NCBI GenBank assembly: GCA_032128375.1
Contig: JAQBGU010000187.1
Location: 1-26,139, forward strand
Length of the DNA: 26,139 nt
Source of the DNA: Deltaproteobacteria bacterium
GTDB lineage: Bacteria; Myxococcota_A; UBA9160; SMWR01
Direction of reading: 5' to 3'
A program made the position numbers and the translations under genes. Positions 956 to 19,972 of this stretch are shown here, one piece after another; the first letter of the stretch is position 1, and every line of letters begins with the position of its first letter. The notes below the pieces were generated by a model that was given only the letters and a program-made list of their open reading frames with translations, was not told the DNA's origin and searched no databases.

Positions 956-3160
956 CTATCCGTGGGGCGGGTCGCGCAGTGGCTGATCTGCCTCGAATAC
1001 GGCCAGGTGCGCGTTCAATTCGTCGAGTCGAGTGTTCTCGCCGGGTAGCCGATTCCCAGTCCGCCTGGTCTCGACTTCGATCGATTTTCTGGAAGCGGCT
1101 GCGGCTGCCGCGAAATCTCCGATTTCCGCGTGAGCAGCCGCGAGCGTGTCGAGGTGTCCAGGATTGTCGCCACCATCCATTTCACGGACCGCGAGCGCCA
1201 GGCGCAAGGCCTCGTTGCCGTCGCGCTGCGATGCGTCGGGACAAGTCGCGAGTGCCCATGCATAGTTGTTCCAGAGTTCTTCGGATTCCGGACACTCTTC
1301 GGAACCGATCCGAAGAGTCTCATGTTGAACGTGATAGTTCCGTTCGAGAAACGACAGGTTCGCGAGCAGAATGCGGGCCTCCGGATCGCAGTGGGACATC
1401 GCGAGCGCGGCGAGCAGGCGCTGCCGGGCGTCATCGCGCCGTTCGGTCTTCATCAGTACGTCGCCCAGCGCGACGAGGTATTGTGGATCATCAGGAAACA
1501 CAGCGACGATCTCCTCGAGCTGTTCGACTGCCTGCTCGTAGTGTCCCATCTTCATCAGTGCTTCGACACGAGATAGTCCGAAGCTCCCCGCCTGGAATTT
1601 CTGCCACAGCGATTCGAACCTCTTGGCGGCCTTCTCGTACCGCCTGCGGCTTTTCGCGCCCAATGCCTGGTTGAGGGTTCGAATATCATCGACAAGTTCC
1701 GACGGATTCGTGCCCGTTAGTTTCAAACTCGATAGGGAGTCCTTGAGTTCCGCAGAAGGTTTCGCCGCGGCGTATCCCAGCGATTGAAGACGCGCACGCA
1801 TCTCGGCGTCGATTGAAACCTCGGCGCCCGTGGGTCCGGTTGGCCCATCGTTGATGAGTTCAGCCATTCGAACTCGCAGGCGTTCGACGATATCGGGTCG
1901 GCTGGAGGCCAGGTTCGACTCCTCTCGGGAATCGGCCACCACGTCGTACAGTTCTGGCTCGAGTTTGTGGATGTACTTCCAAGGGCCTTCGCGAACGGAT
2001 CGGATCATCGAGGAACCGAATGCGAGAACCTCCGCCGACTCTCCGTATCCCGTCAGCTCGAGGTCCTTCGACGTCCCTGTGATCAACGGCAAGAGTGATT
2101 GTCCCTGGATTCCCTCGAGGGGAGACAATCCCAGCAGGTCCACGATGGTCGGTGCGATGTCGGCGGTGCGGACCAGCGAACTGACCAGGGATCCGCGGCG
2201 AATGATCGGAGTCCCCCACATCACCAGCGGTACCCGCATGGTCGTGTCGTAGACGAAAAACGCATGGGTCATCTCACCGTGCTGACCACGACCTTCGCCG
2301 TGGTCGGCCGTCAACACGACGAGCGTACTGGCCTCGAGTGCGAGGCCTCGAATGGTGTCGAGAAGCCGTCCGATTTCCGAATCGACGTAGCTGACTTCTG
2401 CGAGATACGGGCTGGTGGGAAAGCGATCGCGAAACTGCGGTGGCGGCGCATGGAAAATGTGCGGGTCGTAGTAGTGCAGCCAGAGAAAAGACTTGTCGGA
2501 CCTGTGGGCCCGAATGAATTCGATACCCCGATCCGAAATGTCAGCGGCCATCCTCTCTTCGAGTTGAAGCTCGTTCGATCGGTCGGGCGCAGCTGCTGGG
2601 TCGCCGTCTTTGCCGACCATCGCGACGACTTTCAATTCAACGTTGGCGGAAAGTGTATCCCGATAGACTGCGAACCCCTGGTTGAGCTGGGTCTGCCTGC
2701 CGATCACCGGCGCAGCGATCTCGGCGGCTGTCGCGAAACCGTGGCTGCTGAGAACCTCGGCCAAAGTCTGATTCGCCTGCGGCAGCTCGTAGCCGGAATT
2801 CGACCGCACGCCGTGCGCGTAGGGGAACTTGCCGGTCAAGATCGTCGCGTGTGATGGGAGGGTATTGGGTGCGCTAGTCATCGCGTGCTCGAAGCGAAGT
2901 CCCTCACCGCTCATTCGGTCGATATGGGGCGTCGTGGGCAAAGCCTGCCCGTAGACACCCAACGCATCGGCGCGGGTGGTATCGAGCGTGATCAACACCA
3001 CGTGGATCGGGGGCACCACCACGGGGTCGAGCTCGGGGGCGGGCGGGTCCTCGCCGCCGCAATTGATGAGTAGCCCCGCGACCGCTATCCAAAGCATCGG
3101 ATTGTGGCCGCCGCAGTATCGGATGCGCTTTTGGGGGGGTTTTTGAGAGAGTCGAGTCAC
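956..3160 (-). CDS. Sulfatase-like hydrolase/transferase (alkaline phosphatase superfamily) with C-terminal TPR repeats; probable lipoprotein, start may be 3097
   Basis: VVLITLDTTRAD, TLPSHATILTG..HGVR, FLWLHYYDPH, ADHGEG..HGE.TH, ELYD..D..E..NL and LQSLGY; helical TPR-like C-terminus (WNNYAWALAT, HLDTLAAAHAEIG). An alternative ATG at 3097 gives MLWIAVAGLLINC, a lipobox-like signal. Confidence 0.85.
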   Translation of the reverse strand: MTRLSQKPPQKRIRYCGGHNPMLWIAVAGLLINCGGEDPPAPELDPVVVPPIHVVLITLDTTRADALGVYGQALPTTPHIDRMSGEGLRFEHAMTSAPNTLPSHATILTGKFPYAHGVRSNSGYELPQANQTLAEVLSSHGFATAAEIAAPVIGRQTQLNQGFAVYRDTLSANVELKVVAMVGKDGDPAAAPDRSNELQLEERMAADISDRGIEFIRAHRSDKSFLWLHYYDPHIFHAPPPQFRDRFPTSPYLAEVSYVDSEIGRLLDTIRGLALEASTLVVLTADHGEGRGQHGEMTHAFFVYDTTMRVPLVMWGTPIIRRGSLVSSLVRTADIAPTIVDLLGLSPLEGIQGQSLLPLITGTSKDLELTGYGESAEVLAFGSSMIRSVREGPWKYIHKLEPELYDVVADSREESNLASSRPDIVERLRVRMAELINDGPTGPTGAEVSIDAEMRARLQSLGYAAAKPSAELKDSLSSLKLTGTNPSELVDDIRTLNQALGAKSRRRYEKAAKRFESLWQKFQAGSFGLSRVEALMKMGHYEQAVEQLEEIVAVFPDDPQYLVALGDVLMKTERRDDARQRLLAALAMSHCDPEARILLANLSFLERNYHVQHETLRIGSEECPESEELWNNYAWALATCPDASQRDGNEALRLALAVREMDGGDNPGHLDTLAAAHAEIGDFAAAAAASRKSIEVETRRTGNRLPGENTRLDELNAHLAVFEADQPLRDPPHG

Positions 3161-3336
3161 ATGCTGTTCGGAGGCTCGCCGCGGGGTTCGCGAAGTTCAA
3201 CGAAGTTCAAAAGGGTCGCTGAAACGTATCACAGCTGCCGGCGGCGAACTTCGGGACGACCTGATATCCCCTCGGGGATAGATCTCTCGGGAAAAACAGT
3301 CCGTTTTACCGGAGTTTCACATAGAAATATTGGTCT

Positions 3337-3364
3337 TTGACAGTACATGACTTACAGTCATAAT
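3337..3364 (+). promoter_or_regulatory. Putative sigma70 promoter of the fatty-acid operon
   Basis: TTGACA (3337-3342), 16-bp spacer, CATAAT (3359-3364), about 185 bp upstream of the first gene. Confidence 0.7.
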
Positions 3365-3444
3365 CGTGGCCAGTCACCCTGTGACGGCTGTGACTGGAAC
3401 GGAACGGAAAGTGACTGGAAAGTCTAGAAAGTGACTGAAAGTCA
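3347..3444. promoter_or_regulatory. Array of putative TetR operators
   Basis: Perfect palindrome ATGACT-TAC-AGTCAT (3347-3361) overlapping the promoter spacer and -10. Second TGACT-GAA-AGTCA (3432-3444), variant TGACT-GGAA-AGTCT (3412-3425), and inverted repeat CCAGTCAC (3370-3377)/GTGACTGG (3390-3397). Confidence 0.65.
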
Positions 3445-3549
3445 GAAATTTTGCCACAGCGGGCCCGAAAGTCCTGCCCTACGCTGAATCGCCCCCTACT
3501 TGATCGATTGAAGCGGGGCCCCGCGGGGCTCGGCTAGCGGAGACGCGAC

Positions 3550-4506
3550 GTGAATCAGGATTTCAGTCCCGGAAGCTGGGCCATCATCCTCGGGGGCTCG
3601 AGCGGTTTCGGCCTCGCCACGGCGCAGAAGTTGGCCGAGAGCGGTATGAGCGTTTGCATCGTACACCGCGACCGGCGAGGAGCCATGTCTCGAATCGAAC
3701 CCGACTTCGAGAAAATCCGGGGCAGCGGAACCACGCTGTTGACGTTCAACACCGATGCGTTGAACCCGCAAAAGCGCGACGAGATCCTCGACGAATTGAC
3801 CGCTGCGATGGGGGCTGAAGGGCGGGTCCGGGTACTGCTTCATTCTATTGCGTTCGGAAACCTGAAGTTGATCGTCCCCGAACCGTCCGCCGCCGGCACC
3901 CTCGCCGGCACCGCGGCAGGCTCGCTCGCAGATCGTCTCGGTATCGACCCAGAACAACTCTCCCGGGCGGCCGATGATTTGTTCGACAGCGGCAGCGACG
4001 CGTTGCACACGCTGGCCAGCCGGCCCGAGTACCCGAACCGCTACCTCGACGACGACGACCTTGGGCGCACGATCTACAGCATGGGGACGAGCATCCTGGG
4101 CTGGGCACAGGCACTGCTCGATCGCGCGATGTTCGCGGACGACGCGCGGATCTTCGGCTTGACGAGCGAAGGCAACGAAGTGGCTTGGAAGGGCTATGCG
4201 GCCGTCGCAGCAGCCAAGGTCGCCATGGAGTCGATTGCGCGATCCATGGCCGTGGAGCTGGCCCCTTATGGTATCCGTACCAACGTGATTCAGGCAGGAG
4301 TCACGGATACGGCGGCGATGCGTGCAATCCCGGGCAGCGCACAACTCAAGGCCCAAGCGCGCAGCCGCAATCCGTTCGGGCGGCTGACCACACCGCGAGA
4401 CGTCGCCAATGTGATCGATCTTCTTTCGCGACCGGAGGCCAACTGGATCAACGGCGAGGTCATTCGAGTGGATGGGGGCGAACACATCTCGGGGGTTTTG
4501 CGGTGA
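3550..4506 (+). CDS. SDR-family enoyl-ACP reductase (FabL/FabI-like)
   Basis: Rossmann motif ILGGSSGFG, the enoyl-reductase-type Y-x6-K motif (YAAVAAAK), IQAGVTDT, and C-terminal NPFGRLTTPRDVANV..WINGEVIRVDGG. Confidence 0.85.
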   Translation: MNQDFSPGSWAIILGGSSGFGLATAQKLAESGMSVCIVHRDRRGAMSRIEPDFEKIRGSGTTLLTFNTDALNPQKRDEILDELTAAMGAEGRVRVLLHSIAFGNLKLIVPEPSAAGTLAGTAAGSLADRLGIDPEQLSRAADDLFDSGSDALHTLASRPEYPNRYLDDDDLGRTIYSMGTSILGWAQALLDRAMFADDARIFGLTSEGNEVAWKGYAAVAAAKVAMESIARSMAVELAPYGIRTNVIQAGVTDTAAMRAIPGSAQLKAQARSRNPFGRLTTPRDVANVIDLLSRPEANWINGEVIRVDGGEHISGVLR

Positions 4507-5498
4507 CGGTGTTCTTGCACGGCCTGGGCCACTTCCATCCCAACAACGAGATCACCAACCAGTTTCTCGAAGATCTCGACATCGGCACCGACGATCAATG
4601 GATCATGGAGCGCGTGGGGATCCGCTCGCGGCGCACCGTGATGCCGCTGGACTACATTCGTGAGACCCAAAACGTGGAACCTCGGGCCGCAATGGACGCC
4701 GCCGAGTACACGAACGCGCAGATGGGTGCACGAGCGGCAGAACTTGCCATTTCGCGAGCCGGCATCGACAAGGGCCAGATCGGCATGGTCATCGGCGGCA
4801 CCTCCGCCGCCGACACCGCCACACCGGCCGAGGGCTGCAATGTCAGCCGCATACTCGAACTAGAGGTCCCGAGCTTCGATGTCATCTCGGCGTGCACCAG
4901 CTTCTACGTGCAGCTCTATCTGCTCTCGTTGATGCAGCCCGAGAAACTGCCGGACTACGTACTGCTCGTCGCGACGGACGGGCTCACCAAGACCGTCGAC
5001 TACAGAGATCGGGCAGCGGCCGTGCTGTGGGGTGACGGCGCCGCCGCCGCGGTGATCTCCACGCGCCACGAAAGCCGTGCCCGAATCCTCGGCAACACGC
5101 TCGACGGGAGCCCAGCAGGAAACGAAAAGGTTGTCGTCCCGCGCTTGGGTCACTTCCGTCAGGATGGCCGAACCATCCAGGTTTTCGGAATCAAACGCAT
5201 GACCCGAATACTCGCGAACCTGCAGGCCGAATTCGAGCAACCCGACCGCCACTTCAACTTTGTCGGACATCAAGCCAACAGACGGATGCTGGAGTCGGTT
5301 GTCAAGAGCCGCAACATCCCGAACGACAGGCACCACAGCAACGTCGAATGGTTTGGAAACACGGGATCTGCGAGTTCCGCTTCCGTGATCTCGATGCTGT
5401 GGGAGAAGTGGACCGATTCTGACGACGTGGCCGTCGTCGGCGTCGGCGCAGGCTTGGCGTGGTCGGGCTACCTGCTGCGGATTGGAGAGGATTCGTGA
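4503..5498 (+). CDS. fabH: Beta-ketoacyl-ACP synthase III (FabH-like)
   Basis: GTG at 4503 overlaps the upstream TGA (GTGA). Motifs TDDQWIMERVGIRSRR, catalytic Cys (SACTSF), LWGDGAAA, His (GHQAN), Asn (FGNTGSAS), GAGLAW. Confidence 0.9.
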   Translation: MTVFLHGLGHFHPNNEITNQFLEDLDIGTDDQWIMERVGIRSRRTVMPLDYIRETQNVEPRAAMDAAEYTNAQMGARAAELAISRAGIDKGQIGMVIGGTSAADTATPAEGCNVSRILELEVPSFDVISACTSFYVQLYLLSLMQPEKLPDYVLLVATDGLTKTVDYRDRAAAVLWGDGAAAAVISTRHESRARILGNTLDGSPAGNEKVVVPRLGHFRQDGRTIQVFGIKRMTRILANLQAEFEQPDRHFNFVGHQANRRMLESVVKSRNIPNDRHHSNVEWFGNTGSASSASVISMLWEKWTDSDDVAVVGVGAGLAWSGYLLRIGEDS

Positions 5499-6085
5499 AT
5501 TACCAGGAGTTCCAGCAGCAGAAGGCCTTCGACAAGGGCGAACTGCTCGCCTTTGCACATGGCAACCTGTTCGACGGCGCGCCGCCGGAATTCAAAGTGG
5601 AACTCCCGGCCCCTCCGATGCTGATGATCGACCGGATCGTCGACATCAGCCGCGACGGCGCTCGCGGCCGCATCGTTGCGGAACGCAATGTCTCCGTGGA
5701 CGACTGGTTCTTCGAGTGCCACTTCAGGGACGACCCGGTCCAGCCGGGCTGCCTCGGGGTAGACGGCGTCTGGCAGCTGTTGGGCTTCTATTGTGCGTGG
5801 CGCGGCGGTCTCGGTTCAGGACGGGCGCTCGGGTGTGGGGAGGTGGAATTCTCCGGGCAGATCCGGCCCCATGATCGCCTGGTTCGTTACGAGGTCGACA
5901 TACGTCGGTTCACGAAGATCGCCCATGCAGGCGCGTCGCTGGTGATCGGAGATGCACTGCTCTTCGTCGATGACGAGCTCATCTACGAAATCAAACGCGC
6001 GAAGGTGGGGACGTTTCAGGGAATCGATTATCCCGACTATCCGAAGGCTTCTGCGCGGTCGCGCGGTGGAAAAATGGAGCGATGA
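5495..6085 (+). CDS. fabA: 3-hydroxyacyl-ACP dehydratase/isomerase (FabA-type)
   Basis: GTG at 5495 (GTGA overlap). LPAPPMLMIDRI, WFFECHFRDDPVQPGCLGVDGVWQLLGFY (His/Asp dyad), GRALGCGEVEFSGQI. Confidence 0.92.
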   Translation: MNYQEFQQQKAFDKGELLAFAHGNLFDGAPPEFKVELPAPPMLMIDRIVDISRDGARGRIVAERNVSVDDWFFECHFRDDPVQPGCLGVDGVWQLLGFYCAWRGGLGSGRALGCGEVEFSGQIRPHDRLVRYEVDIRRFTKIAHAGASLVIGDALLFVDDELIYEIKRAKVGTFQGIDYPDYPKASARSRGGKMER

Positions 6086-6540
6086 GCGGAAGGCGCCTGA
6101 CACCCGATGAAGTCCTGGCGGCGCTGCCGCAGCAGGAGCCGTTTCGCTTCGTCGACGAAATCCTCGAGATCGATGAAGAACACATCATCGGCTCGTACCG
6201 GTTCCGGCCCGATGCCGATTTCTATCGCGGTCACTTCCCCGGAAATCCGGTCACACCGGGTGTGATCTTGATCGAGTCGATGGCGCAAGTAGGCATCGTG
6301 GCGCTCGGGCTCTACCTGTTGACGCTCGAGAGCGAGGCCGACATCGACACGATCACGACCCTGTTCACCGACACCAGCGTCGACTTCAATGGGATCGTCA
6401 AGCCGGGGGATCGGGTGACAATCTCTGCTAGAAAGACATTTTTCCGGCGTCGAAAGCTGCGAAGCGAAGCCGAGATGGCTCTCGACGATGGCACCGTCGT
6501 ATGCTCGGGAAGTGTTTCTGGCATGGGAGTATTCAGATGA
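6082..6540 (+). CDS. fabZ: 3-hydroxyacyl-ACP dehydratase (FabZ-like)
   Basis: LPQQEPFRFVD, FYRGHFPGNPVTPGVILIESMAQ (His/Glu dyad), VKPGD; ATGA overlap with fabA. Confidence 0.85.
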   Translation: MSGRRLTPDEVLAALPQQEPFRFVDEILEIDEEHIIGSYRFRPDADFYRGHFPGNPVTPGVILIESMAQVGIVALGLYLLTLESEADIDTITTLFTDTSVDFNGIVKPGDRVTISARKTFFRRRKLRSEAEMALDDGTVVCSGSVSGMGVFR

Positions 6541-7814
6541 GCAACCGCGTGGTGGTCACGGGCCTCGGGGTATTGGCAGCCAATGGCAACGGCATCCATG
6601 CCTTCGAGCTCGCACTCCGAAAGGGACACTCGGGTATTCGCCAGAACGAAAAGATGATCGAATGCGGCTTTGGCTCGCACGTCGCCGGCGTGCCTCAGGG
6701 AATCGACGAGATCGCCGAGTCCTATTTCGACGAAGACATGTTGCGAGCGATGAATTCGGGGCACCGATTTGCATCGATCGCGTCCGTCGACGCGTGGACC
6801 GACGCCGGCCTCGAGCGACCGGACCCGGCAGACGACACGGTCGATTGGGACACCGGAGCCATTCTCGGAACCGGGATCGGAGGCATGGACACGATCGCAG
6901 CCAAGGTCGTTCCACTGACGGACTCGAAGATGATTCGACGTCTTGGCAGCACCGCAGTCGAGCAGGTCATGGCCAGCGGCGTGTCAGCACGGCTGTCGGG
7001 GTTGTTTGCACTGGGCAACCAGGTGACGACCAACTCGAGCGCCTGCAGCACTGGAAGTGAAGCAATCTCGATGGGCTTCGAGCGGATTCGCAACGGTCTG
7101 GCGAAACGAATGCTCTGTGGTGGTGCCGAAGGCGCGAGCCACTACATCTGGGCGGGTTTCGACGCGATGCGTGTGTTGTGCCGCAAGTTCAACGATGAAC
7201 CCGAGCGGGCATCCCGACCGATGTCCGCATCAGCGGCAGGTTTCGTCCCGAGCGCGGGAGCCGGCGTGCTGATGCTGGAGAGTCTCGATAGCGCGCGAGA
7301 ACGCGGCGCGCGGATCTACTGTGAGATCGCCGGTTCCGCGGTCAACTGCGGTGGACATAGGGGGGGCGGAAGCATGACCGCACCCAATCCCGAGAGCGTG
7401 AAGCGGTGTATCAAGGCAGCATTGGCCGACGCGCAAACGCAACCGGAGGAAGTCGGCGCGATCAACGCGCATCTGACCGCGACCGGTGCAGACCCGAACG
7501 AAGTGCGCTCCTGGTCGGCGGCACTCGATTGCCGTCCACAGGATCTCCCCCCGATCACGTCGACGAAGTCGATGATCGGCCATGCACTTGGAGCCGCAGG
7601 CGGAATCGAATCGGTGGCCAGCGTTTTGATGCTCCGCGGCGGCTTCATCCATGCATCGATCAATTGCGGTGACGTGCATCCAGAAATCGAGCCCTACGCG
7701 GCGTCCATTCCGCACACGGCACGCGAACTTCCCGACCTCCAGGTGGTCATGAAGGCCGGCTTCGGTTTTGGGGACGTAAACGCGTGCGTCGTGTTCCGGA
7801 AGTGGAACGAGTAG
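6537..7814 (+). CDS. Beta-ketoacyl-ACP synthase I/II (FabB/FabF family)
   Basis: ATG at 6537 (ATGA overlap). RVVVTGLG, catalytic Cys (SSACSTG), His (INAHLTAT), His (TKSMIGHALGAAG), C-terminal GFGFGDVNA. Confidence 0.92.
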   Translation: MSNRVVVTGLGVLAANGNGIHAFELALRKGHSGIRQNEKMIECGFGSHVAGVPQGIDEIAESYFDEDMLRAMNSGHRFASIASVDAWTDAGLERPDPADDTVDWDTGAILGTGIGGMDTIAAKVVPLTDSKMIRRLGSTAVEQVMASGVSARLSGLFALGNQVTTNSSACSTGSEAISMGFERIRNGLAKRMLCGGAEGASHYIWAGFDAMRVLCRKFNDEPERASRPMSASAAGFVPSAGAGVLMLESLDSARERGARIYCEIAGSAVNCGGHRGGGSMTAPNPESVKRCIKAALADAQTQPEEVGAINAHLTATGADPNEVRSWSAALDCRPQDLPPITSTKSMIGHALGAAGGIESVASVLMLRGGFIHASINCGDVHPEIEPYAASIPHTARELPDLQVVMKAGFGFGDVNACVVFRKWNE

Positions 7815-7878
7815 CTCGACCAGCCCAATCGCCACCGGTAAATCAGACATCACACCAGATCACCAAAGGAGAAGTACA

Positions 7879-8127
7879 GTGGACCAGACGGAGATCTTCG
7901 AGAAAGTCATCAAGATTCTCACCCCTTACGTCAAGAACCAGGAAGCACTCGCCAAAGTCACGCCCGCTACGCACATCCTCGACGACCTGAAGGTGAATTC
8001 CGCTCGCCTCGTCGACGTTGTTCTCGAATTCGAAGACATCTTCGAGATCGAAATCGACGATGACGATGTCGACTCGGTAGAGACGGTGGGCAACGCAGTC
8101 GCGTTGATCGAGTCGAAGCTAGGCTAG
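7879..8127 (+). CDS. Acyl carrier protein
   Basis: 82 aa and highly acidic. DDLKVNSARLVDVVLEFEDIFEIEIDDDD matches ACP helix II with the Ser attachment site. RBS AAGGAG upstream. Confidence 0.92.
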   Translation: MDQTEIFEKVIKILTPYVKNQEALAKVTPATHILDDLKVNSARLVDVVLEFEDIFEIEIDDDDVDSVETVGNAVALIESKLG

Positions 8128-8891
8128 TGGCTTCGCGACCTTTCGCCCCCGTTCCGCCGCAGATGCGACGGAAACTGAAGGTTCAACGCGAGACAACGCG
8201 TCTGCTCTCGCCACTCACGCTCCCGCTGGTCGCACTCACCCTCCGATACGGGTTCGGATACCGAATCGAGGGGCTGACCGAGCTTCGCGCGGACTATCGC
8301 AGAGCCTCTCTCGAAAACGACGCCCCTATGATCATATGCGCAAATCATCTCACGCTGATCGATTCCTTCATCATCGCATGGGCACTGGGATCGCCATGGT
8401 GGTACATCCGGCAGTTTCGAACCCTTCCGTGGAACGTCCCCGAGCAATCGATCTTCGCCGCCACGCCCTGGCTTCGGAGCGCGATCTACATCATGAAGTG
8501 TCTTCCCATTCAGCGGGGCGGCGAGCGTCGGGGCGTCACTGAGGTGCTAGCGAAAATCGCCCACCTGATCTCGCAGGGCGAAACCGCGTTGATCTTCCCC
8601 GAAGCCGGCCGCAGCCGGTCCGGACGAATCGAGGTGGAATCGGCGGCAACTGGAGTGGGGCGAATTTTCAAGTCGGTGCCGAACTGTCGAGTGATTTGTG
8701 TGTACCTGCGTGCAGAGAGCCAAGAGTCGTATTCCAGCGCGCCACGCCGCGGGGATCGATTTCGGGGCTCGCTCGAAGTGATCGAGCCGAAGACTGACCA
8801 CCCAGGTGTCCGTGGATCGCGTGACATCGCGCATCAGATTCTCGTACGACTCGCAGACATGGAGCGTAGCTACTTCGATGCTCGGAAATGA
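8127..8891 (+). CDS. Lysophospholipid acyltransferase (PlsC family)
   Basis: HX4D motif NHLTLID, LPIQRG, IFPEAGRS; hydrophobic N-terminal segment; GTG shares one base with the ACP stop. Confidence 0.88.
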   Translation: MASRPFAPVPPQMRRKLKVQRETTRLLSPLTLPLVALTLRYGFGYRIEGLTELRADYRRASLENDAPMIICANHLTLIDSFIIAWALGSPWWYIRQFRTLPWNVPEQSIFAATPWLRSAIYIMKCLPIQRGGERRGVTEVLAKIAHLISQGETALIFPEAGRSRSGRIEVESAATGVGRIFKSVPNCRVICVYLRAESQESYSSAPRRGDRFRGSLEVIEPKTDHPGVRGSRDIAHQILVRLADMERSYFDARK

Positions 8892-9522
8892 CATCGTAGA
8901 CCTCGCAGACCCCGAGACGTCCCGTGGGGGCCAGCATCCGCGCTTCGACGAGCGGGTCTTTGCGAGCTGTGAACGTGCGGCGCTTGCCCGAAGTTCCGAC
9001 CCGACGCGTTTGCGCTGGATGCTGTGGGCAGTGAAGGAAAGCGCCTTCAAGGGGTTGCGCAGAACGCAGCCGGCGACGGTCCTATCGCCAGTTCAGTTCG
9101 TGGTCGACCTCGATTCCCAGCTACACGGGACAGTCAGCTGCCGAGACCAACACTACTGTGCAACCGTCGAATTGGATCGAGATTGCGTTCACGCGATCGT
9201 CTCCGATGATCTCGCGCGGGACGGCACGCTGTGGGGATCGCGACGGGTCGCGGACGGCACCGTCGCTGACATTGCAGCCAGTCAGCAGGCGCGCTCGCTG
9301 GCTCTGGACCGAATTTCCGCTCGGCTCGGAATCGATCGATCCGAGCTCGGTATCGAGCGCGTCGGGCGAATTCCGCAGCTGGTTCACCGCGGTGCATGCA
9401 CACCGTCGACACTCTCGCTTTCGCACCACGGATCGTACGTGAGTTTTGCCTGTCAGCTCGAGCCGTGGTGCGTGACAGCTGTCGATCGGCTGCCTCCCCG
9501 ATTGCAAACGGTCACTCGATAG
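8878..9522 (+). CDS. 4'-phosphopantetheinyl transferase
   Basis: ATG at 8878 gives MLGNDIVDL (GxD motif), WAVKESAFK (WxxKEA-like motif) and LSLSHHG. Confidence 0.88.
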   Translation: MLGNDIVDLADPETSRGGQHPRFDERVFASCERAALARSSDPTRLRWMLWAVKESAFKGLRRTQPATVLSPVQFVVDLDSQLHGTVSCRDQHYCATVELDRDCVHAIVSDDLARDGTLWGSRRVADGTVADIAASQQARSLALDRISARLGIDRSELGIERVGRIPQLVHRGACTPSTLSLSHHGSYVSFACQLEPWCVTAVDRLPPRLQTVTR

Positions 9523-9531
9523 GGAGACACA

Positions 9532-12500
9532 TTGAAAGAACAACTGATTCGTCGACTGGTGATCATCAATCGGGGCGAAGCCGCGATGCGCGCGATCCGC
9601 GCCGTCAAAGCGCTGCGAGCCTTGGAAGGCTCAAATCTCGAGAGTGTGGTCCTATACACCGACGTCGATCGAGAAGCTCCGTTTGTCCGCCATGCGGACC
9701 GCGCGATTCGGCTCGACTCCAGTCGGGGCCCTGTCGCAGCCTACCTCGACCGCGACCGATTGATGCAAGCATTGGTCGAGGCCGAGGCCGATGCGGTGTG
9801 GCCGGGATGGGGATTCGTCGCGGAAGACCCCGAATTTGCGGACCTGGTGGTCGCGAGCGGACTTCGTTTCCTGGGTCCATCCGGCGACGTGATGCGTGCA
9901 CTGGGCGACAAGATCGATGCGAAGCGCGTGGCCGAAAAAAGTGGCGTTCCAGTTCTCGCCTGGAGTGGTGCTGTCGTAACCGACCCTGCCGAAGCCGCAG
10001 CCGTCGCGGCGCGCATCGGCTACCCGGTGGTCATCAAGGCCGCTGCCGGCGGAGGTGGCCGCGGGATTCGGATGGTGGAATCAGAAGCAGATATCGAGAC
10101 CTCGTTCCGTTCCGCTGCTGCGGAGGCACGATCGGCGTTCGGCGACGACCGACTCTTTGTCGAACGCAGGCTACCCCGCGGCCGACACATCGAAGTCCAG
10201 TTTGCCGCCGACTCGCACGGAAACTCGATGTCGCTTGGGTGCCGCGATTGCTCGATCCAGCGCCGACACCAGAAAGTAGTCGAAGAGGCTCCACCACCCG
10301 GGCTACCCGGCGCGTTTCTGGCGCAGCTCGAAAGCGCGGCGATCGGACTGGTGACACAGGTGGGCTATGTCGGCGTGGGAACCGTCGAGTTCCTGGTATC
10401 AGCCGGAGAATTCTTCTTCCTCGAGGTCAATCCCCGCTTACAGGTCGAACACGGGATCACAGAGGAATTGACCGGGATCGATCTGGTACAGCTACAGATC
10501 CGGATCGCTCGCGGCGAGTCGCTGCCCCCTGCCCCGCAGCCAAGGGCACTGGTCGCGATCGAGGCGCGTGTGTGCGCCGAGGATCCGCAGGCCGACTTTC
10601 TTCCGACGCCGGGTCGGATCGCACTGTTCGATCCTGCGCTCGGACCTCGGATGCGAATCGACTCGGGTGTGGCGGCGGGTTCCCAGGTTCCGGCGGAGTT
10701 CGACTCCCTGATCGCCAAGTTGATTGCAGTAGGCGATTCCCGCGAGGACGCCCGCGCGCGACTCACCTGCGCGCTTACCGACTTCGAGTTGGTCGTCGCC
10801 GGCGGCGCCACCAACAAGGGCTACCTGATCGACATCCTGGAAGCGGATGAGTACCGGTCGGGCGATTACGACACGGAATGGCTCGATCGCTCGCCCGGTC
10901 TGCGCAGCGGCTCCGACGAGTTCGCCGTCGAAGCGCTGATCGTCGCATCGATCCTGTGTTATCAGCGATACCGCGACGGTGCACGCCAGAAATTCTACGC
11001 GGACCCGGCAACGCTCTCGCCGACATCCATCCCCGCATCCACGGGCCAACGTGTCGACCTGACTGCAGGATCAGAAAGCTACAGGCTGCAGGTCTTCGGA
11101 GTCGGAGCCTGGCGATATCGGGTACACATGGACGGGCACGTCGCGGTCGCGACGTTGCGCGACGAAAGGGCGAACTCCGCAATCCTCGAGCTTTCCGGTC
11201 GCAGCCTGCGAGTCGTCCACGACATCACGGAACAGGGTTTGCGCATCGAAGTCGAGTCGCGTCCGTACCGCTTCAGCAGCGAACTCGCTGGCCAGGTTCG
11301 TTCGAGCACTCCAGCCGTCGTGCTTTCGCTCCAGGTCAAGCCCAGAGATGTCGTATCCACTGGGCAATCACTCGGATTGCTGGAAGCGATGAAGACCGAG
11401 ATCGACTTCCGATCTCCCGTCAGCGGCGTCGTCAAGGAAATCCTGGTGCGAGCTGGTCAGCAGGTGGTCGCTGGCGAGTTGCTGCTGGTGATCGAGGCAG
11501 AGGCCAAAGGAACAGAGGAGGCGCCCCGCGAGCATCTCGAACTGCCGTCCTATAGCGACCCATTGGACATCTTCTTCAGACCTGCCGATGAATCTACCGA
11601 ACCGCCCGGGACCGAAAAGTTGACTGTCGTCGACTTGCTGGCGGCCGAACGAGCCGACACAGAATCAAGACGTCGCGCGATGGATGCTGCACGCGACGAA
11701 ATTCGTCGCGTACTGATGGGCTACGATGTCAACCCCCTGCGCGGCGAACGTCTGGTTTCGCTGTTGGAAGTTCCGCTTCCCGAGGGCCTGAGTGAGTCGT
11801 TCCGATGGGAACTGGCCGAGATTCGGCACGACCTGACGCTGTTTGCCGACATCGAAGAACTGTTCGTTCGCGCCCAGCACGCCTCGGTTTCGGGTGATCT
11901 CGGCCCGTCGAATCACGCACGGTTACGCGCCTATATGCGACGCATGGCGACCGGTGGTGCTGGAATCTCAGAGGAGTTCCTGACCATCCTACGCCATGCA
12001 CTATCCCACTACGGTGTCGACTTGCAACCCTGCGAGGCGTTGGAACGGGCCGTGCTGCGATTGGTCGCTACCCAGCTGGCCCCAAAATTGCGGCGACGTT
12101 TGGTGGCCGAAATCCTGCGGCGCATCCACGCGCTCGCCGTATCCGGACTCCATCTCGGCCACGACAGCGCACTAGCAGATGCTCTTTCGTCCATCGCCGG
12201 GCTGCGCGGTTTGGTTCCCGACGCGCTCGCCGACCACGCGATCGAAGCGAGCTACGCGATCTTCGAGCGCCCCGAACTCGAGCGGCAAGCCGAGCGCACC
12301 AGCAAAGAGGTGGAGAGCTGGCTGTCGCAAGCCGAGTCGGAACCTACACCGCCGCCCAATGCCGTATTGGTGCACCTCGCCAACGCGCCGCGTATCGTCT
12401 TCGATCGGGTCGGACACTGGATCGGTGACGCGAACCCGCTGCGTAGTGCGGTTGCCGTCGCAGCGCACGTGTGCCGCCTGTACGCGCCTGGCAGTGCCCC

Positions 12501-15150
12501 CACCCATACATCAGACATCATCGGTGCGGCGCACGTCGAGCGCCTCGATTTGAAGGACGGTCGAACCGTTTTGGGAAGCGTGGCACGTTCGGACCGCATC
12601 AGTCACGCCCTGGCGTTACTGGTGCGCGCCGCCGCAGCCGTGGGGGGTGTCGACGCGATCGAACTTCTGGTTCCCTCGGAACCGGACGAGGACCTGAGTC
12701 ACCTGCACAAAGTCCTGACTCCGGTTCTGACCTCTCTCGGCCGTTCGCTGTCGGCTGATCGGTTGACAGTCACGCGGTTGTGTAAGGAGGACCCGCCGGA
12801 ACACCTGAGCCTGATCGTGGCAGATTCGGGTTGGAAGGAAGCGACGGGATTGCATGGGCTGCATCCTGAAACCGCGGCGCGAATCGACCTCGAACGGTTG
12901 CAGGCGTTCCATCTCGAGAGGTTGGAATCGCCCGACGACATCTACTGTTTCCACCTGCGATCGAAGCAGATCCCTGGCGACGAGCGAATCTTCGTGCTGG
13001 CTGACTTCCGCGGACGCGCTCCCGATGATGGCCTCGAAGCGACGCTCCATATCCCGTCGTTCGAACGCGCGTTCTTCGAGGCGGCCCGAACGCTCCGAAG
13101 TCATCTCGGGATGCGGGATCCGAGTCGCCGGTTGCAGTGGAACCGGATCGCGGTATTCGCGTCGCCGACGATCTTCCTCGATGACGAAGTTGCCGAGCGT
13201 CTCGCAAGGCGTCTCGCGCCCGACACGCGACACCTCGGACTCGAGAAGGTCATCGTCCGGCTGAATGTCCTCGATCGTGCGAGCCCCGACGAGCGCGCTA
13301 GGCCCATCGAGGTCGTCATCGCTGACCCCACCGGGAGCAACATGGAGCTCTCGTGGCGCGGACCGCATCACGATGCTCTGGAGCCTGCCCGCGACTACGA
13401 ACGCAAGGTCGTCGACGCGAAGAGACGCAGACTGGTCTACCCCTATGAAATTATCAAACTCCTGACGGGCGGCTCCGGCGAAAACGGCGTAGCTCGCGGA
13501 GAAACCGATCCGGACCTCCCGCCCGGAAACTTCGAAGAGTTCGACCTGTGCCCGAAGAGCGAAGCCGGTCCTGTGGCGGTCAGCGTGGCGGGCCGAGCCT
13601 ACGGACTCAACGACTCATCGGTTGTCTTCGGCGTCATCGACACGCCGACCGAGAAGATCAGTGAGGGAATGAAACGAGTCTTGATCCTGTCCGATCCGAC
13701 CGTCGGTATGGGCGCACTCGCGGCACCGGAGTGCGATCGCATCGTCGCGGCGATCGATCTCGCACAAAGTCTCGGGGTTCCGCTCGAGTGGGTACCCGTA
13801 TCCAGCGGTGCACGAATCGCAATGGACAGCGGAACCGAGAACCTGGATGCGACCGCACGCGTCGTCCGCCGCATCGTCACATTCACCCAGGGTGATGGCA
13901 CGATTCACGTCATCGTCGCGGGTGTCAACATTGGCGCGCAGAGCTATTTCAATGCGCTTAGCACGATGCTGCCGCATACACATGGCGCTCTGATCATGAC
14001 ATCGGGTGCATCGATGCTATTGACCGGCCGCGCAGCGCTGGATGCATCCGGTTCGGTTTCCGCCGAAGATGAAGCGGCGATCGGGGGCTTCGAACGCATC
14101 ATGGGTCCCAACGGCGAAGCCCAGTACTTCGCGCGAAACATCGCCGACGCGTATCGGATCCTGTACGAACACTACCGCTACACGTATGTGACGCCCGGCG
14201 AATCGACGCCACGGCCGTTCCAGACCACTGACCCCGAGACACGCGCGATCACCGGTTTCGTCTGCGAGCCAGAAGAGGGACATGACTTCCACACGCTGGG
14301 GGAGATATTCGACCCGGCGACCAATCTCGATCGGAAACGCCCGTTCTCGATGCGCCTCGTGATGGAATCGCTCGTCGATCAAGACGGCGGTCACCTGGAG
14401 CGCTGGCGATCTTGGCAGGGTGCCGAGACCGCGATCGTGTGGGACGCGCACCTCGGTGGACACGCCATCTGTCTGATCGGCATCGAGAGCCGCAACCTCG
14501 ACCGCGAGGGTTACAGCCCAACCGATGGACCCGCAGTATGGACGGGTGGGACGTTGTTTCCGCTCTCCTCGAAGAAGCTCGCCCGCGCGCTGACTGCGGC
14601 TAGCGGGAACCGGCCGGTCGTGTTGCTTGCAAACTTATCCGGTTTCGACGGGTCGCCGGAATCCATGCGAAAGCTCCAGCTGGAATACGGAGCCCAGATC
14701 GCGCGAGCTGTCGTCAATTTCGAGGGGCCGCTGTTGTTCATGGTGGTATCGCGATACCACGGCGGCGCCTACGTGGTGTTTTCGGGTGCTCTCAATGATG
14801 GCTTGCGGCCCGCTGCACTGGCCGGATCGTTCGCATCGGTGATTGGTGGAACCCCCGCAGCCACGGTCGTGTTCGCGCGAGAGGTCCGTGCACGCGTCGG
14901 CTTCGATCCCCGCATCACCGCGCTTCGCCGCGCTACGGACTTCGAATCGCGCGAAAAATTCGACCGGGCCTGGCAGGAAGTCACATTGGAAAAACAGGTC
15001 GAGCTCGCCGCTCAGTTCGACAGCGTTCACACGGTAGAGCGTGCGCGAGAAGTCGGGTCGCTCAAAGCGATTGTTGATCCCGCGGATATGCGTCGTTATC
15101 TGATCGATGAACTGCGCGGGAGTCCGAGAAGCGGGAGATCCAGCGGATGA
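9532..15150 (+). CDS. Single-chain multidomain acyl-CoA carboxylase (BC-BCCP-central region-CT), eukaryotic ACC-like architecture
   Basis: BC domain: INRGEAAMR, PGWGFVAE, IKAAAGGGGRGIR, RDCSIQRRHQKVVEEAP, FLEVNPRLQVEH. Biotinyl domain: LLEAMKTE. Long central region. CT domain: SSGARI, LLANLSGFDG, HGGAYVV. TTG start with RBS AGGGAG. Confidence 0.93.
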   Translation: MKEQLIRRLVIINRGEAAMRAIRAVKALRALEGSNLESVVLYTDVDREAPFVRHADRAIRLDSSRGPVAAYLDRDRLMQALVEAEADAVWPGWGFVAEDPEFADLVVASGLRFLGPSGDVMRALGDKIDAKRVAEKSGVPVLAWSGAVVTDPAEAAAVAARIGYPVVIKAAAGGGGRGIRMVESEADIETSFRSAAAEARSAFGDDRLFVERRLPRGRHIEVQFAADSHGNSMSLGCRDCSIQRRHQKVVEEAPPPGLPGAFLAQLESAAIGLVTQVGYVGVGTVEFLVSAGEFFFLEVNPRLQVEHGITEELTGIDLVQLQIRIARGESLPPAPQPRALVAIEARVCAEDPQADFLPTPGRIALFDPALGPRMRIDSGVAAGSQVPAEFDSLIAKLIAVGDSREDARARLTCALTDFELVVAGGATNKGYLIDILEADEYRSGDYDTEWLDRSPGLRSGSDEFAVEALIVASILCYQRYRDGARQKFYADPATLSPTSIPASTGQRVDLTAGSESYRLQVFGVGAWRYRVHMDGHVAVATLRDERANSAILELSGRSLRVVHDITEQGLRIEVESRPYRFSSELAGQVRSSTPAVVLSLQVKPRDVVSTGQSLGLLEAMKTEIDFRSPVSGVVKEILVRAGQQVVAGELLLVIEAEAKGTEEAPREHLELPSYSDPLDIFFRPADESTEPPGTEKLTVVDLLAAERADTESRRRAMDAARDEIRRVLMGYDVNPLRGERLVSLLEVPLPEGLSESFRWELAEIRHDLTLFADIEELFVRAQHASVSGDLGPSNHARLRAYMRRMATGGAGISEEFLTILRHALSHYGVDLQPCEALERAVLRLVATQLAPKLRRRLVAEILRRIHALAVSGLHLGHDSALADALSSIAGLRGLVPDALADHAIEASYAIFERPELERQAERTSKEVESWLSQAESEPTPPPNAVLVHLANAPRIVFDRVGHWIGDANPLRSAVAVAAHVCRLYAPGSAPTHTSDIIGAAHVERLDLKDGRTVLGSVARSDRISHALALLVRAAAAVGGVDAIELLVPSEPDEDLSHLHKVLTPVLTSLGRSLSADRLTVTRLCKEDPPEHLSLIVADSGWKEATGLHGLHPETAARIDLERLQAFHLERLESPDDIYCFHLRSKQIPGDERIFVLADFRGRAPDDGLEATLHIPSFERAFFEAARTLRSHLGMRDPSRRLQWNRIAVFASPTIFLDDEVAERLARRLAPDTRHLGLEKVIVRLNVLDRASPDERARPIEVVIADPTGSNMELSWRGPHHDALEPARDYERKVVDAKRRRLVYPYEIIKLLTGGSGENGVARGETDPDLPPGNFEEFDLCPKSEAGPVAVSVAGRAYGLNDSSVVFGVIDTPTEKISEGMKRVLILSDPTVGMGALAAPECDRIVAAIDLAQSLGVPLEWVPVSSGARIAMDSGTENLDATARVVRRIVTFTQGDGTIHVIVAGVNIGAQSYFNALSTMLPHTHGALIMTSGASMLLTGRAALDASGSVSAEDEAAIGGFERIMGPNGEAQYFARNIADAYRILYEHYRYTYVTPGESTPRPFQTTDPETRAITGFVCEPEEGHDFHTLGEIFDPATNLDRKRPFSMRLVMESLVDQDGGHLERWRSWQGAETAIVWDAHLGGHAICLIGIESRNLDREGYSPTDGPAVWTGGTLFPLSSKKLARALTAASGNRPVVLLANLSGFDGSPESMRKLQLEYGAQIARAVVNFEGPLLFMVVSRYHGGAYVVFSGALNDGLRPAALAGSFASVIGGTPAATVVFAREVRARVGFDPRITALRRATDFESREKFDRAWQEVTLEKQVELAAQFDSVHTVERAREVGSLKAIVDPADMRRYLIDELRGSPRSGRSSG

Positions 15151-15818
15151 GCTCGCGAACGACAGAGCCAGGGTACGCGACTTCTCGGCCCCCTGGGCGC
15201 GCCAAGAAAAAGGCCGCCGTTCGCCGACGAATTCTGGAGAGCGCCAAAGGAGTCTTCTTCCGAGATGGCTTCATGGAAGCGAACCTCGATGAGGTCGCCG
15301 AACGAGCCGGCGTGGCGAAAGGAACCCTCTACCGATACTTCGAAAACAAAGCTCAGCTCTACGTCGCGGTGCTTTCGCACCGAGGTAAGGTGTTCGAGGA
15401 GAAACTCAAAGGGGCGCTGGATCCCGAGGCACCTCCGATCGAGGCGCTGTGGGACGCGAGCCGCTTCTACCTCCAGCACTATGTGACCAACCGCGAATAT
15501 TTCCAGATCTTCTGGGCCATCGAGAATCAGTCGGTGATTGGCGAGCTTCCATCGCAAGTTGTCGATGAAGTGACGCGACTGTGGGAGCAGAGTCTCGGTA
15601 CTTTGGCTGGGATCATCGACCGGGGCGTCGAAGAAGGAGTGTTCGCGCCCTGTGACGCCTGGGAAGTGGCCAGCATCCTATGGACGTTGGCGAACGCAGT
15701 CATCCGAACCGAGTCTTCTCCCGCACACCGCGGCTTGCGTCTACACAGCCTCGAATCGTTTTTCGAAGATGCAATCGGCTTGATGATCCGGGGAATGGCG
15801 GTACAGCGGCTGCCATAA
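15147..15818 (+). CDS. TetR/AcrR family transcriptional regulator
   Basis: HTH ILESAKGVFFRDGFMEANLDEVAERAGVAKGTLYRYFENKAQL; ATGA overlap with the carboxylase stop. Confidence 0.95.
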   Translation: MSSRTTEPGYATSRPPGRAKKKAAVRRRILESAKGVFFRDGFMEANLDEVAERAGVAKGTLYRYFENKAQLYVAVLSHRGKVFEEKLKGALDPEAPPIEALWDASRFYLQHYVTNREYFQIFWAIENQSVIGELPSQVVDEVTRLWEQSLGTLAGIIDRGVEEGVFAPCDAWEVASILWTLANAVIRTESSPAHRGLRLHSLESFFEDAIGLMIRGMAVQRLP

Positions 15819-15891
15819 CTGGCGCTGGCCTGATCGTTTCCCTTCGCTGGGTTGTCTTTAGGGTTATCGAGCGGTTGTCGCGGGCTGCTGG

Positions 15892-16599
15892 TCAGTCTGC
15901 GGGCTTCGCTGCCTCGGCTTCCAGAACGGCTATGGCGTCAGTCACCGCCTGCAACACCCGCGGCGGCGGGTTGGAATCTAACAACCGGCGAAGCGGTTCG
16001 ATTGCGACGGGATCCTCTTCGCTCGCGAGCGCCCGGACAATCTTGATCAGCAGTACAGTATCGGTGTGATTCAACAACCCGACGAAAGCAGGAACGGCGT
16101 CCTTTGCTGGGAATGAAGCGATCTGCTGGATGGCCCAGCCGCGCAGTTCTGGCGGATTGCCTTTCCGAACGATTCTGGTCAGCACACTGAGGTCCTCAGG
16201 CAGACTCGCGACGTCGATGCCCTGGAGCCTCGCGATTTCGGCCACCAGTTCTTTCAGGGCTTCCGGGTCTATTTTGGGCCTTCGGCCATAGCCGCGTTTG
16301 CGGGATCTGGCAGCACCGGAATCCTTCGCGAAGATGACCTCGTCATTGAGACGAACCCAGGGCCCGTCCGCTTCGAGCCCGCGCTTCCAGATCGCACCAC
16401 TCGACGAGTCGACCTTGAGCAGCAGCGGCTCGCGAATGTCTGTCAGAATTCGAAAATCGAAGCGTCCCAATTCGGCGGTCATCTCGCTGCCTCGTCGATT
16501 CAACCCTTCGAAAGGGAAGACCAGGCGCTGAATCAACAGCAGCAAGGTCAGTAGAAGCACGAGGCCAAGCAGCAGACGGTCCATGGAATCGAGTTTCAC
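15892..16599 (-). CDS. Membrane-anchored protein with a small beta domain and C-terminal HEAT repeats
   Basis: N-terminal hydrophobic helix (LLLGLVLLLTLLLLIQ). HEAT-like repeats ELRGWAIQQIASFPAKDAVPAFVGLL and IVRALASEEDPVAIEPLRRLL. The N-terminal domain resembles ORF 17770-18090. Confidence 0.75.
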   Translation of the reverse strand: MKLDSMDRLLLGLVLLLTLLLLIQRLVFPFEGLNRRGSEMTAELGRFDFRILTDIREPLLLKVDSSSGAIWKRGLEADGPWVRLNDEVIFAKDSGAARSRKRGYGRRPKIDPEALKELVAEIARLQGIDVASLPEDLSVLTRIVRKGNPPELRGWAIQQIASFPAKDAVPAFVGLLNHTDTVLLIKIVRALASEEDPVAIEPLRRLLDSNPPPRVLQAVTDAIAVLEAEAAKPAD

Positions 16600-16632
16600 A
16601 TTCTCTCAATGGGAAAGTTGCAGTTCCACTCG

Positions 16633-16663
16633 CAACAAACGCCTCGGACGAACGTCCGAGGCG
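16633..16663 (-). terminator. Intrinsic terminator after PEP-CTERM gene 2
   Basis: Perfect inverted repeat CGCCTCGGACG (16640-16650)/CGTCCGAGGCG (16653-16663), followed on the minus strand by TTTGTTG. Confidence 0.8.
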
Positions 16664-16694
16664 CTCAACGCTACTGCAAATTTGCCAGAGCCGC

Positions 16695-18090: not shown

Positions 18091-18139
18091 CAGGTCTCCT
18101 GCCGCATTGTTCCGGCCTCTAGCCGTTTCTTGGCGGCTT

Positions 18140-18244: not shown

Positions 18245-18310
18245 CCTCTGCCGACTTCCGCATTGATTCGGTGAGGTATGGAAGTCGTCTTGACTCGCGT
18301 TCTGGAACTT

Positions 18311-19956: not shown

Positions 19957-19972
19957 CACGCGAGCTATGACG

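Follow-up and report, generated by a model that had tools for sequence, protein, structure and literature searches.

The window analyzed here, 26,139 bases that represent one entire contig (C187) from the assembled genome of an uncultured myxobacterium of marine sediment (6.2 Mb in 249 contigs, 91% complete), carries on its + strand an operon of ten genes (positions 3550-15818) that were identified by Pfam and NCBIfam profile matches and by active-site motifs in their translations. We suggest that this operon encodes a type II fatty-acid synthesis (FAS) line that works on a private acyl carrier protein (ACP) and that is interlocked with canonical FAS genes residing elsewhere in the genome, rather than being independent of them; judged from the sequences, we put the probability of this reading at about 0.5. 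The original prediction had viewed the operon as a self-contained, secondary FAS that borrows only FabD and FabG. Self-containment did not survive scrutiny, as the operon holds the genome's only FabA and FabZ and no AccA or AccD was found; a ketoreductase (KR) and FabD lie on other contigs.

The case for interlocking comes primarily from the FAS gene complement of the genome. A canonical fabD-acpP-fabF group is found on contig C14, fabH on C148, and a pdxJ-acpS pair on C136. The scores of the first four of these genes exceed their NCBIfam cut-offs by a wide margin (score/cut-off in bits: fabD, 333/260.9; fabF, 595.6/493.75; acpP, 109.3/70.45; fabH, 346.8/292.1), and the C148 fabH passes both FabH models (TIGR00747 and NF006829). 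Hence, this bacterium has FAS genes besides those of the operon: condensing enzymes and a carrier are also encoded elsewhere. FabA/FabZ-type dehydratases, on the other hand, occur in the window only, since its FabA and FabZ are the genome's only two matches to PF07977. AccA and AccD were not found over cut-off in the genome (best scores 37.5 and 52.3 bits), and a heteromeric acyl-CoA carboxylase (ACC) was detected neither here nor in the 30 related genomes searched; seven other carboxyltransferase (CT) genes are present, including a pair of CT and biotin carboxylase (BC) genes on C181. An additional FAS line therefore exists insofar as a private ACP, a private 3-ketoacyl-ACP synthase (KAS), a private KASIII and a private 4'-phosphopantetheinyl transferase (PPTase) stand beside a canonical set, but it is not simply an extra one, because the operon holds the sole FabA and FabZ and no AccA or AccD was found.

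Neither a FabG-like nor a FabD-like gene is present in the window operon as judged from Pfam/NCBIfam profile searches and the translations, as had been predicted. In this genome, the only one searched in this respect, none of the 93 matches to the short-chain dehydrogenase/reductase (SDR) family passes the TIGR01830 cut-off for FabG. The gene that ranks second among the FabG-like matches (C128:5352-6050) shares 74% identity with a KR encoded between the enoyl-ACP reductase (ER) and ACC genes of a relative (G019). Of 100 related loci that were fetched, 36 (34 of 90 distinct contigs) have an ortholog of the C128 KR (65-78% identity) placed between FabA and FabZ. Since the KR ortholog is part of the cluster in these loci, the lack of FabG from the window operon appears to be a derived, local state in which the cluster's own KR has been relocated to another contig. 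FabD would thus indeed be borrowed, from C14, but the KR looks like a cluster-type ortholog and not like a housekeeping enzyme.

From these genes we infer the following pathway. The 1872-amino-acid single-chain carboxylase would produce malonyl-CoA; the PPTase of the operon would first activate the private ACP, and the canonical FabD of C14 would then load malonyl-CoA onto this carrier. KASIII would initiate the chains and the KAS would extend them, the cluster-type KR of C128 would reduce the keto group, FabZ would dehydrate, and FabA would both dehydrate and isomerize to yield cis-unsaturated chains, while the FabL/FabI-type reductase with its insertion would reduce the enoyl group. The finished acyl chain would be moved from the private ACP to an acceptor among the membrane lipids, in the simplest case a lysophospholipid, by the PlsC-family acyltransferase (AT), and the TetR regulator would repress the operon by binding to candidate palindromes over the promoter and in the leader until a ligand releases it. 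Cells of this type would consequently operate two carriers, each with its own condensing enzymes and its own PPTase. Because no other recognizable enzymes of these kinds were found, the cluster-type KR, dehydratases, ER and ACC probably also serve the canonical AcpP/FabF line.

The ten co-oriented genes (Table 1) are tightly packed, and the five four-nucleotide stop/start overlaps recorded in the original prediction were all found at their positions (GTGA at 4503 and 5495; ATGA at 6082, 6537 and 15147). The ACP and AT genes overlap by 1 nucleotide, 9 nucleotides separate the PPTase and ACC genes, and 64 nucleotides separate the KAS and ACP genes. The overlap between the AT and PPTase genes amounts to 86 nucleotides if the PPTase starts at GTG 8806, and to 14 nucleotides if it starts at ATG 8878; tblastn alignments of the PPTase likewise begin within the AT gene in several relatives. 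All fab-type proteins of the operon with the exception of FabA score below the curated NCBIfam equivalog cut-offs.

The first gene encodes an SDR whose catalytic Y-x6-K motif reads YAAVAAAK, with Y216 and K223 invariant among 39 orthologs. This is the spacing of enoyl reductases, as opposed to the Y-x3-K of ketoreductases. Its best sequence matches in the Protein Data Bank (PDB) are Bacillus subtilis FabL (3oic) and Thermus thermophilus FabI (1ulu), and a structural model of good quality (predicted local distance difference test score 88.9) retrieves FabI (2wyw) and FabL (3oid) as the top Foldseek hits, with FabG chains interleaved among the hits. The notion that this SDR could be the missing ketoreductase was rejected on the basis of the invariant Y-x6-K motif and of the FabL/FabI sequence matches. 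With 120 bits, the protein remains below the cut-off of the NCBIfam FabL model (328), and it contains a conserved insertion of about 60 residues (105-165) that forms two helices (122-146) in the model. The window protein and its 38 orthologs form a distinct ER subfamily, the insertion being absent from solved FabI and FabL structures.

The KASIII possesses the motifs ACTS, GHQAN and GNTGSAS, falls short of both FabH models (TIGR00747, 155 versus 292.1; NF006829, 187.9 versus 249), and is 25% identical to the canonical FabH of C148. The FabZ-like dehydratase also scores below its models (NF000582, 80.4 versus 113; TIGR01750, 77.7 versus 155.15), as does the KAS (TIGR03150, 294.9 versus 493.75; PRK07967, 270.8 versus 630), which can be aligned over its full length with KAS I and KAS II structures and contains the motifs SACSTG, AHLTATG (a variant of HGTGT), STKS and GHALGAAG. 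The dehydratase encoded at 5495-6085, by contrast, surpasses one FabA model (NF003509, 210 versus 124), although it stays below another (TIGR01749, 174.8 versus 238.15); its alignment with Escherichia coli FabA (1mka; E 2e-41) preserves the CHF...GCLGxD His/Asp motif, and we regard it, from these sequence features, as a true FabA. Among the PDB entries, the KAS I (FabB) enzymes of Brucella and E. coli score slightly above E. coli KAS II (FabF) as matches to the KAS, a proximity that hints weakly at an unsaturated branch of the FabA/FabB type. Since FabA is a true FabA and the KAS lies slightly nearer to FabB than to FabF, the unsaturated acyl chain that had been proposed as the product is plausible, and where FabA is present the product probably comprises saturated and cis-monounsaturated chains; FabA is missing from some cluster variants among the fetched loci. 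The FabA/FabB route, which had been called characteristic of alpha- and gamma-proteobacteria, is not restricted to these groups.

In the private ACP, DLKVNSARLVDV takes the place of the DLGADSLD of AcpP; the modification site reads NSA within a KVNSARL-type motif, and all of the 88 orthologs retain its serine. The match of this protein to TIGR00517 (42.2 bits) is below the cut-off of 70.45. The NHLTxxD and FPExGRSR blocks of the AT are invariant in 16 orthologs; the enzyme scores 36.1 against TIGR00530 (cut-off 102.95), does not match PF03279, is one of 12 PF01553 proteins encoded in the genome, and retrieves from the ESM Atlas only clusters of generic acyltransferases, most commonly from Myxococcota. 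The PPTase gene is one of three PF01648 genes in the genome. In the single-chain carboxylase, a BC domain, a biotin carboxyl carrier protein (BCCP) domain and a CT domain are all recognizable, an EAMKTE motif is present, and the N-terminal half resembles the alpha subunits of methylcrotonyl-CoA and propionyl-CoA carboxylases. The central and CT portions find their best PDB match in a fungal ACC (5i6f/5i6g; E 9e-16), and the central PF08326 domain, which reaches 18.7 bits in the window protein against a cut-off of 23.2, is precomputed on many close homologs. The family contains 595 representatives at E <= 1e-30, mostly unnamed; the best 150 of these are nearly all of bacterial size, and those with names include records labeled Holophaga and Oligoflexia as well as a single EukProt entry. 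By its sequence, this 1872-amino-acid protein thus appears to be a single-chain ACC of the eukaryotic type.

The cluster family reaches far beyond the genome studied here. Open reading frames (ORFs) in this high-GC DNA were picked with a method that takes the GC content of third codon positions into account. The gene order recurs in the 100 fetched loci with protein identities of 45-95%, and since this same order is found in related and in unrelated metagenome-assembled genomes, it reflects more than chance. The commonest architecture is ER-KASIII-FabA-KR-FabZ-KAS-ACP-AT-PPTase-ACC. A FabD-like gene stands in front of the ER gene in 2 of the 100 loci, and in the fullest relatives (L099 and L131) malonyl transacylase (MAT), KASIII, KAS, KR, two dehydratases, ER, ACP, PPTase, AT and ACC are all united in one cluster. 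A scan of species-representative genomes returned more than 534 AT-encoding contigs; the best 80 of these keep the gene order and are labeled mostly as Myxococcota or Deltaproteobacteria, and also as Binatia and Gemmatimonadota/Longimicrobiales, the loci of the latter being devoid of an ACC gene. Twenty-seven of the 30 relatives possess the ACC (in one frame in 20, in pieces in 7), and G011, G024 and G025 have only paralogs at the BC level; G028 (L053, L054) carries two single-chain ACC genes, the second of which is 44% identical to that of the window. Orthologs of the ER are present in 26 of 31 genomes, the window's own included, often far from the cluster, and those of the KASIII in 22 of the 31.

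In the 30 relatives, PF07977 proteins are encoded in the cluster except at six places, and eight genomes have none. The six places comprise tandem domains resembling PfaC (G026:C475), a 727-amino-acid frame (G010:C141), a canonical FabZ (G020), another cluster (G007:C3), and two sub-threshold entries. Four of the relatives (G024, G025, G028 and G030) are high-quality genomes without the cluster and without any PF07977 match over cut-off, most of them with a canonical FabF; in G025, only a ketosynthase (KS) within a 2173-amino-acid frame was found. The junction at C232 (L014:2788-4667), where rnhB directly follows lpxD, is consistent with an order-wide lack of canonical FabZ, as fabZ-lpxA-lpxB usually lie between these two genes.

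In an even sample of 401 genomes from the phylum, an AT ortholog was detected in 61, namely in all members of families f1 (11/11), f9 (2/2), f10 (25/25), f12 (11/11) and f4 (1/1), in a minority of f7 (1/8) and f13 (2/14), and in a few genomes elsewhere; the cluster is present in 49 of the 49 sampled genomes of four families of the order to which the window belongs. A FabZ that we count as canonical-scoring (E <= 1e-28, an imperfect control) is missing from all families of this order except f3, is found in all 14 members of the sister family f13, and is also missing from several distant families (f19, 0/34; f21, 0/29; f26, 0/23; f28, 0/19). In f7, the AT occurs in one of eight genomes and FabZ in none. 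Since some families of the order lack both the cluster and FabZ, another, unrecognized dehydratase must exist in the order. A separate canonical-scoring FabZ (119-136 bits) is encoded by six of seven carriers labeled Gemmatimonadota or Binatia and by none of three Myxococcota carriers. In the former groups, the cluster is an add-on to a canonical FAS, just as the original prediction supposed for the window, while in this order of the Myxococcota it is part of the core and has acquired the single-chain ACC and, in the closest relatives, the TetR regulator.

Several of these observations weigh against an interlocked system and at the same time favor a different arrangement, in which the operon and the C128 KR would constitute a fully separate accessory FAS for one special chain or lipid, with bulk FAS being carried out by the canonical set, an unrecognized dehydratase and reductase (MaoC-type hotdog proteins, a FabK-like flavoprotein), and a PccB-type carboxylase. 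The dehydratase implied by families of the order without cluster and FabZ could be the housekeeping enzyme here too, and candidates are not scarce: the genome contains 14 MaoC-type matches, a FabK-like protein of the nitronate monooxygenase (NMO) family (C232:64607-65620; 273.9 bits versus a cut-off of 453), and the additional carboxyltransferase genes, among them the C181 pair. Scores below the curated cut-offs are what one would expect of specialized paralogs, the ACP, KAS, KASIII and FabZ being divergent; a dedicated PPTase and AT exist beside two other PPTases and 11 other PF01553 genes; most carriers in other phyla retain their own FabZ; and the rhizobial AcpXL/LpxXL cluster (PMC5613085) provides a precedent. 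The incompleteness of the assembly (91%) also counts against our reading. Searches for MaoC-type and NMO/FabK-like proteins gave many candidates, none of them decisive; the FabV profile PF12242 was uninformative, with no match in the genome or even in control genomes. A fully separate accessory FAS is the main rival to our reading and carries real weight, but we consider it less likely. No candidate housekeeping dehydratase or reductase adjoins any of the canonical fab genes examined, nearly all members of the family have orthologs of the ER and the ACC, including members in which the remainder of the cluster was not detected, and the presence of the cluster throughout four families is the behavior of a core-genome element.

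This last property would also suit another view, namely that the operon is itself the housekeeping FAS, with the private ACP as the main carrier for phospholipids and the canonical acpP-fabF-fabD-fabH genes reserved for precursors of lipid A, lipoate or biotin; the sole FabA and FabZ, an ACC embedded in the operon in a genome without detectable AccA or AccD, and relatives that carry the whole set in one cluster would all be in keeping with it. Yet the canonical FabF, AcpP, FabH and FabD surpass their cut-offs by far and have been kept in nearly all relatives, those without the cluster included, and a FabZ of canonical score exists apart from the cluster in carriers from other phyla. A repressor with a dedicated operator would also be less usual for a sole, essential FAS, even though repressor control of essential FAS genes is known from FabR and FasR. 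On balance, we find this view improbable. Least probable is a polyketide- or aryl-polyene-like secondary-metabolite pathway. Aryl-polyene clusters do combine an ACP, a PPTase, hotdog dehydratases and an acyltransferase of the lysophospholipid acyltransferase (LPLAT) family, the operon likewise contains a private ACP, a dedicated PPTase, two hotdog dehydratases and an LPLAT, and its KAS and FabZ are weak matches to the cispentacin AmcF and AmcE models. However, the operon also encodes an ER with an invariant Y-x6-K motif, a true FabA, and a single KAS with intact Cys/His/His residues and no chain-length-factor partner; thioesterase, cyclase, ammonia-lyase, AMP-ligase and methyltransferase genes are missing from it, and a separate aryl-polyene-like gene set exists on C203/C77. 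On the strength of the ER, the true FabA, and the lack of a chain-length factor and of tailoring genes, a non-fatty-acid pathway was discarded.

Taken to its furthest consequence, the interlocked arrangement that we prefer could mean that, in this order, a FAS module with a private ACP has spread horizontally and has taken the place of canonical FabG, FabZ and FabI and of the heteromeric ACC, with one reductive cycle serving two carriers and with flux being divided by the carrier, AcpP leading to lipid A and cofactors and the KVNSARL-type ACP to glycerolipids via the PlsC-like AT. We consider this extended scenario as unlikely.

Among known systems, the cluster seems to work like a type II FAS, like the rhizobial AcpXL/LpxXL system, and like the mycobacterial acpM operon, but it fails the equivalog tests of the corresponding families. 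With the type II FAS possessing a FabA/FabB branch it shares the protein families and catalytic motifs of KASIII, KAS, FabA, FabZ, an SDR-type ER and ACP. It departs from it in that KR and MAT are not encoded in cis in the window operon and canonical fabD-acpP-fabF, fabH and acpS genes coexist elsewhere, in that its ACP reads KVNSARL in place of GADSLD, in that the ACC is one chain of 1872 amino acids, and in that a PPTase and a PlsC-type AT are encoded inside the operon. Like the all-in-one fab-acc cluster of Streptococcus pneumoniae, the window encodes the ACC together with the fab genes, here in a translationally coupled operon. The mycobacterial FAS-II operon (fabD-acpM-kasA-kasB-accD6) likewise represents a second line of FAS, for which a separate ACP, separate condensing enzymes and a carboxylase component are encoded together; it elongates products of FAS-I, carries only the CT subunit, contains neither an acyltransferase nor a PPTase gene, and depends on MaoC-type dehydratases (HadABC) encoded elsewhere. 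As with FabR, DesT and FasR, the gene of a TetR-type regulator accompanies the fab genes, and an operator in the form of a palindrome is predicted over the promoter, but the window TetR does not belong to these equivalogs (FasR model, 48.7 bits versus a cut-off of 330). In the rhizobial very-long-chain fatty acid cluster, acpXL-fabZXL-fabF1XL-fabF2XL-(adhA2XL)-lpxXL, a special chain is built on a private carrier by a dedicated dehydratase and dedicated condensing enzymes, and is delivered to one lipid by a dedicated acyltransferase, the other FAS steps being borrowed (PMC5613085). As described, this alpha-proteobacterial cluster includes no FabA, ER, KASIII, PPTase or ACC, and LpxXL is a lipid A enzyme of the LpxL family (PF03279), in contrast to the PF01553 AT of the window. 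The single-chain multidomain carboxylase SACE_4237 of Saccharopolyspora erythraea (about 200 kDa), an essential source of malonyl-CoA, joins BC and BCCP to a central region and CT within a single polypeptide, the central and CT parts being related to eukaryotic ACC; this actinobacterial enzyme, to which we liken the window ACC by its architecture, is not reported in a fab operon (PMC6491548).

The operon is preceded by a sigma-70-like promoter that matches the consensus at 11 of 12 positions. By itself, a match of this quality has no significance (2.5 are expected in shuffled sequences), but it gains weight because it lies upstream of the first gene and overlaps a perfect palindrome; a second palindrome is embedded in the tandemly repeated leader (Table 1). 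The pattern TGACYNNNRGTCA occurs only twice in the window, against an expectation of 0.06. A like palindrome with at most one mismatch is present between -99 and -225 in the upstream regions of all nine closest relatives, whereas shuffled upstream regions yield such a site in 3-13 of 1000 cases (0.3-1.3%). The position of the palindrome over the promoter fits the predicted repression of the operon by its TetR, and with it the inducibility that had been proposed earlier. The TetR gene is found only in the clusters of the closest relatives (10 of the 100 loci). Genome-wide, the operator pattern has 13 matches (18.6 expected from an order-0 model), of which five are intergenic; three of these lie at two TetR-linked ACP loci and the other two beside unrelated genes, and no wider regulon emerged from this search. 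At C232:35295-36342 (L014:7296-8343), a TetR paralog that shares 55% identity with the TetR of the operon precedes a second ACP of canonical score (TIGR00517, 89 bits versus 70.45), and the palindrome TGACCGTCAGTCA is positioned between the two genes (C232:35970). From its sequence, this pair looks like a small sister regulon. No Rfam family matches at its gathering threshold anywhere in the window, leader included, and no RNA data set covering 3200-9700 was found.

Table 1. Genes and candidate control elements of the operon region, with positions in the window
Feature	Position	Strand	Basis or remarks
Candidate sigma-70-like promoter, TTGACA-16-CATAAT	3337..3364	+	11/12 positions; only such site in 3100-16700
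Perfect palindrome TGACTTACAGTCA, candidate TetR operator	3348..3360		In promoter spacer/-10
Tandem units of about 20 bp, GAAAGTGACTGGAAAGTCA, in 5' leader	3390..3448		Second palindrome inside
Second palindrome TGACTGAAAGTCA	3432..3444		In tandemly repeated leader
Enoyl-ACP reductase (ER), FabL/FabI-type SDR	3550..4506	+	Y-x6-K; two-helix insertion of about 60 residues
KASIII (FabH-like), divergent	4503..5498	+	Pfam ACP_syn_III, ACP_syn_III_C; Cys/His/Asn motifs
FabA, 3-hydroxyacyl-ACP dehydratase/isomerase	5495..6085	+	NF003509; alignment with E. coli FabA
FabZ-like dehydratase, divergent	6082..6540	+	PF07977, 65.4 bits (cut-off 23); GHFPGNPVTPGV...E motif
Elongating KAS (FabB/FabF-like), divergent	6537..7814	+	TIGR03150, below cut-off; KAS I/II structures
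Private ACP	7879..8127	+	PF00550, 24 bits; motif DLKVNSARLVDV
PlsC-family (LPLAT) acyltransferase (AT)	8127..8891	+	PF01553, 50.3 bits (cut-off 23); HX4D, FPEAGR
4'-Phosphopantetheinyl transferase (PPTase)	8806/8878..9522	+	PF01648, 35.7 bits
Single-chain acyl-CoA carboxylase (ACC), BC-BCCP-central-CT, 1872 amino acids	9532..15150	+	Pfam domains
TetR-family regulator, last gene of the operon	15147..15818	+	PF00440, 52.3 bits

Judged from its gene content, the cluster family appears to be an almost complete FAS that is organized around a private carrier and that includes an activating enzyme and a lipid acyltransferase of its own. It is widespread in uncultured sediment and soil bacteria and is undescribed in the papers searched. 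Should these cells depend on the cluster alone for dehydratase, reductase and carboxylase, genome-based reconstructions of lipids and metabolism that rely on canonical fabZ, fabI and accABCD would mistakenly rate such lineages as lacking fatty-acid synthesis, and the product could be a lineage-specific membrane lipid and a useful biomarker. In that case, the insertion-bearing ER subfamily and the pair formed by the private ACP and the PPTase would also be ready targets for biochemical work.

Two gene sets elsewhere in the genome deserve mention next to the canonical FAS genes. On C14 (L015:9561-11276), the gene immediately after fabF is a single frame of 571 amino acids in which a ribose-5-phosphate isomerase B domain is fused to serine hydroxymethyltransferase; three relatives have an ORF of about 150-160 amino acids in this position, which is followed in one of them by an ORF of 380 amino acids. 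The genome's best FabG-like match belongs to the separate lipid/aryl-polyene-like set on C203:1-17000 and C77 (L142, L144), which also encodes an LpxL-like acyltransferase, a family 2 glycosyltransferase (GT2), an AMP-ligase, an LPLAT, halogenase-like flavoproteins, and a KS.

Downstream of the operon, the - strand of the window encodes PEP-CTERM proteins (16695-17330, 18408-19118 and possibly 19119-19511) and an exosortase with a DUF3485 domain (20037-21647). The intergenic DNA in this segment (16695-21647) has a lower GC content (0.52) and contains 14 copies of CTATCGG at 18147-18245, and a tandem repeat, CTCAGAAA in 3.4 copies, is located at 19527-19553.

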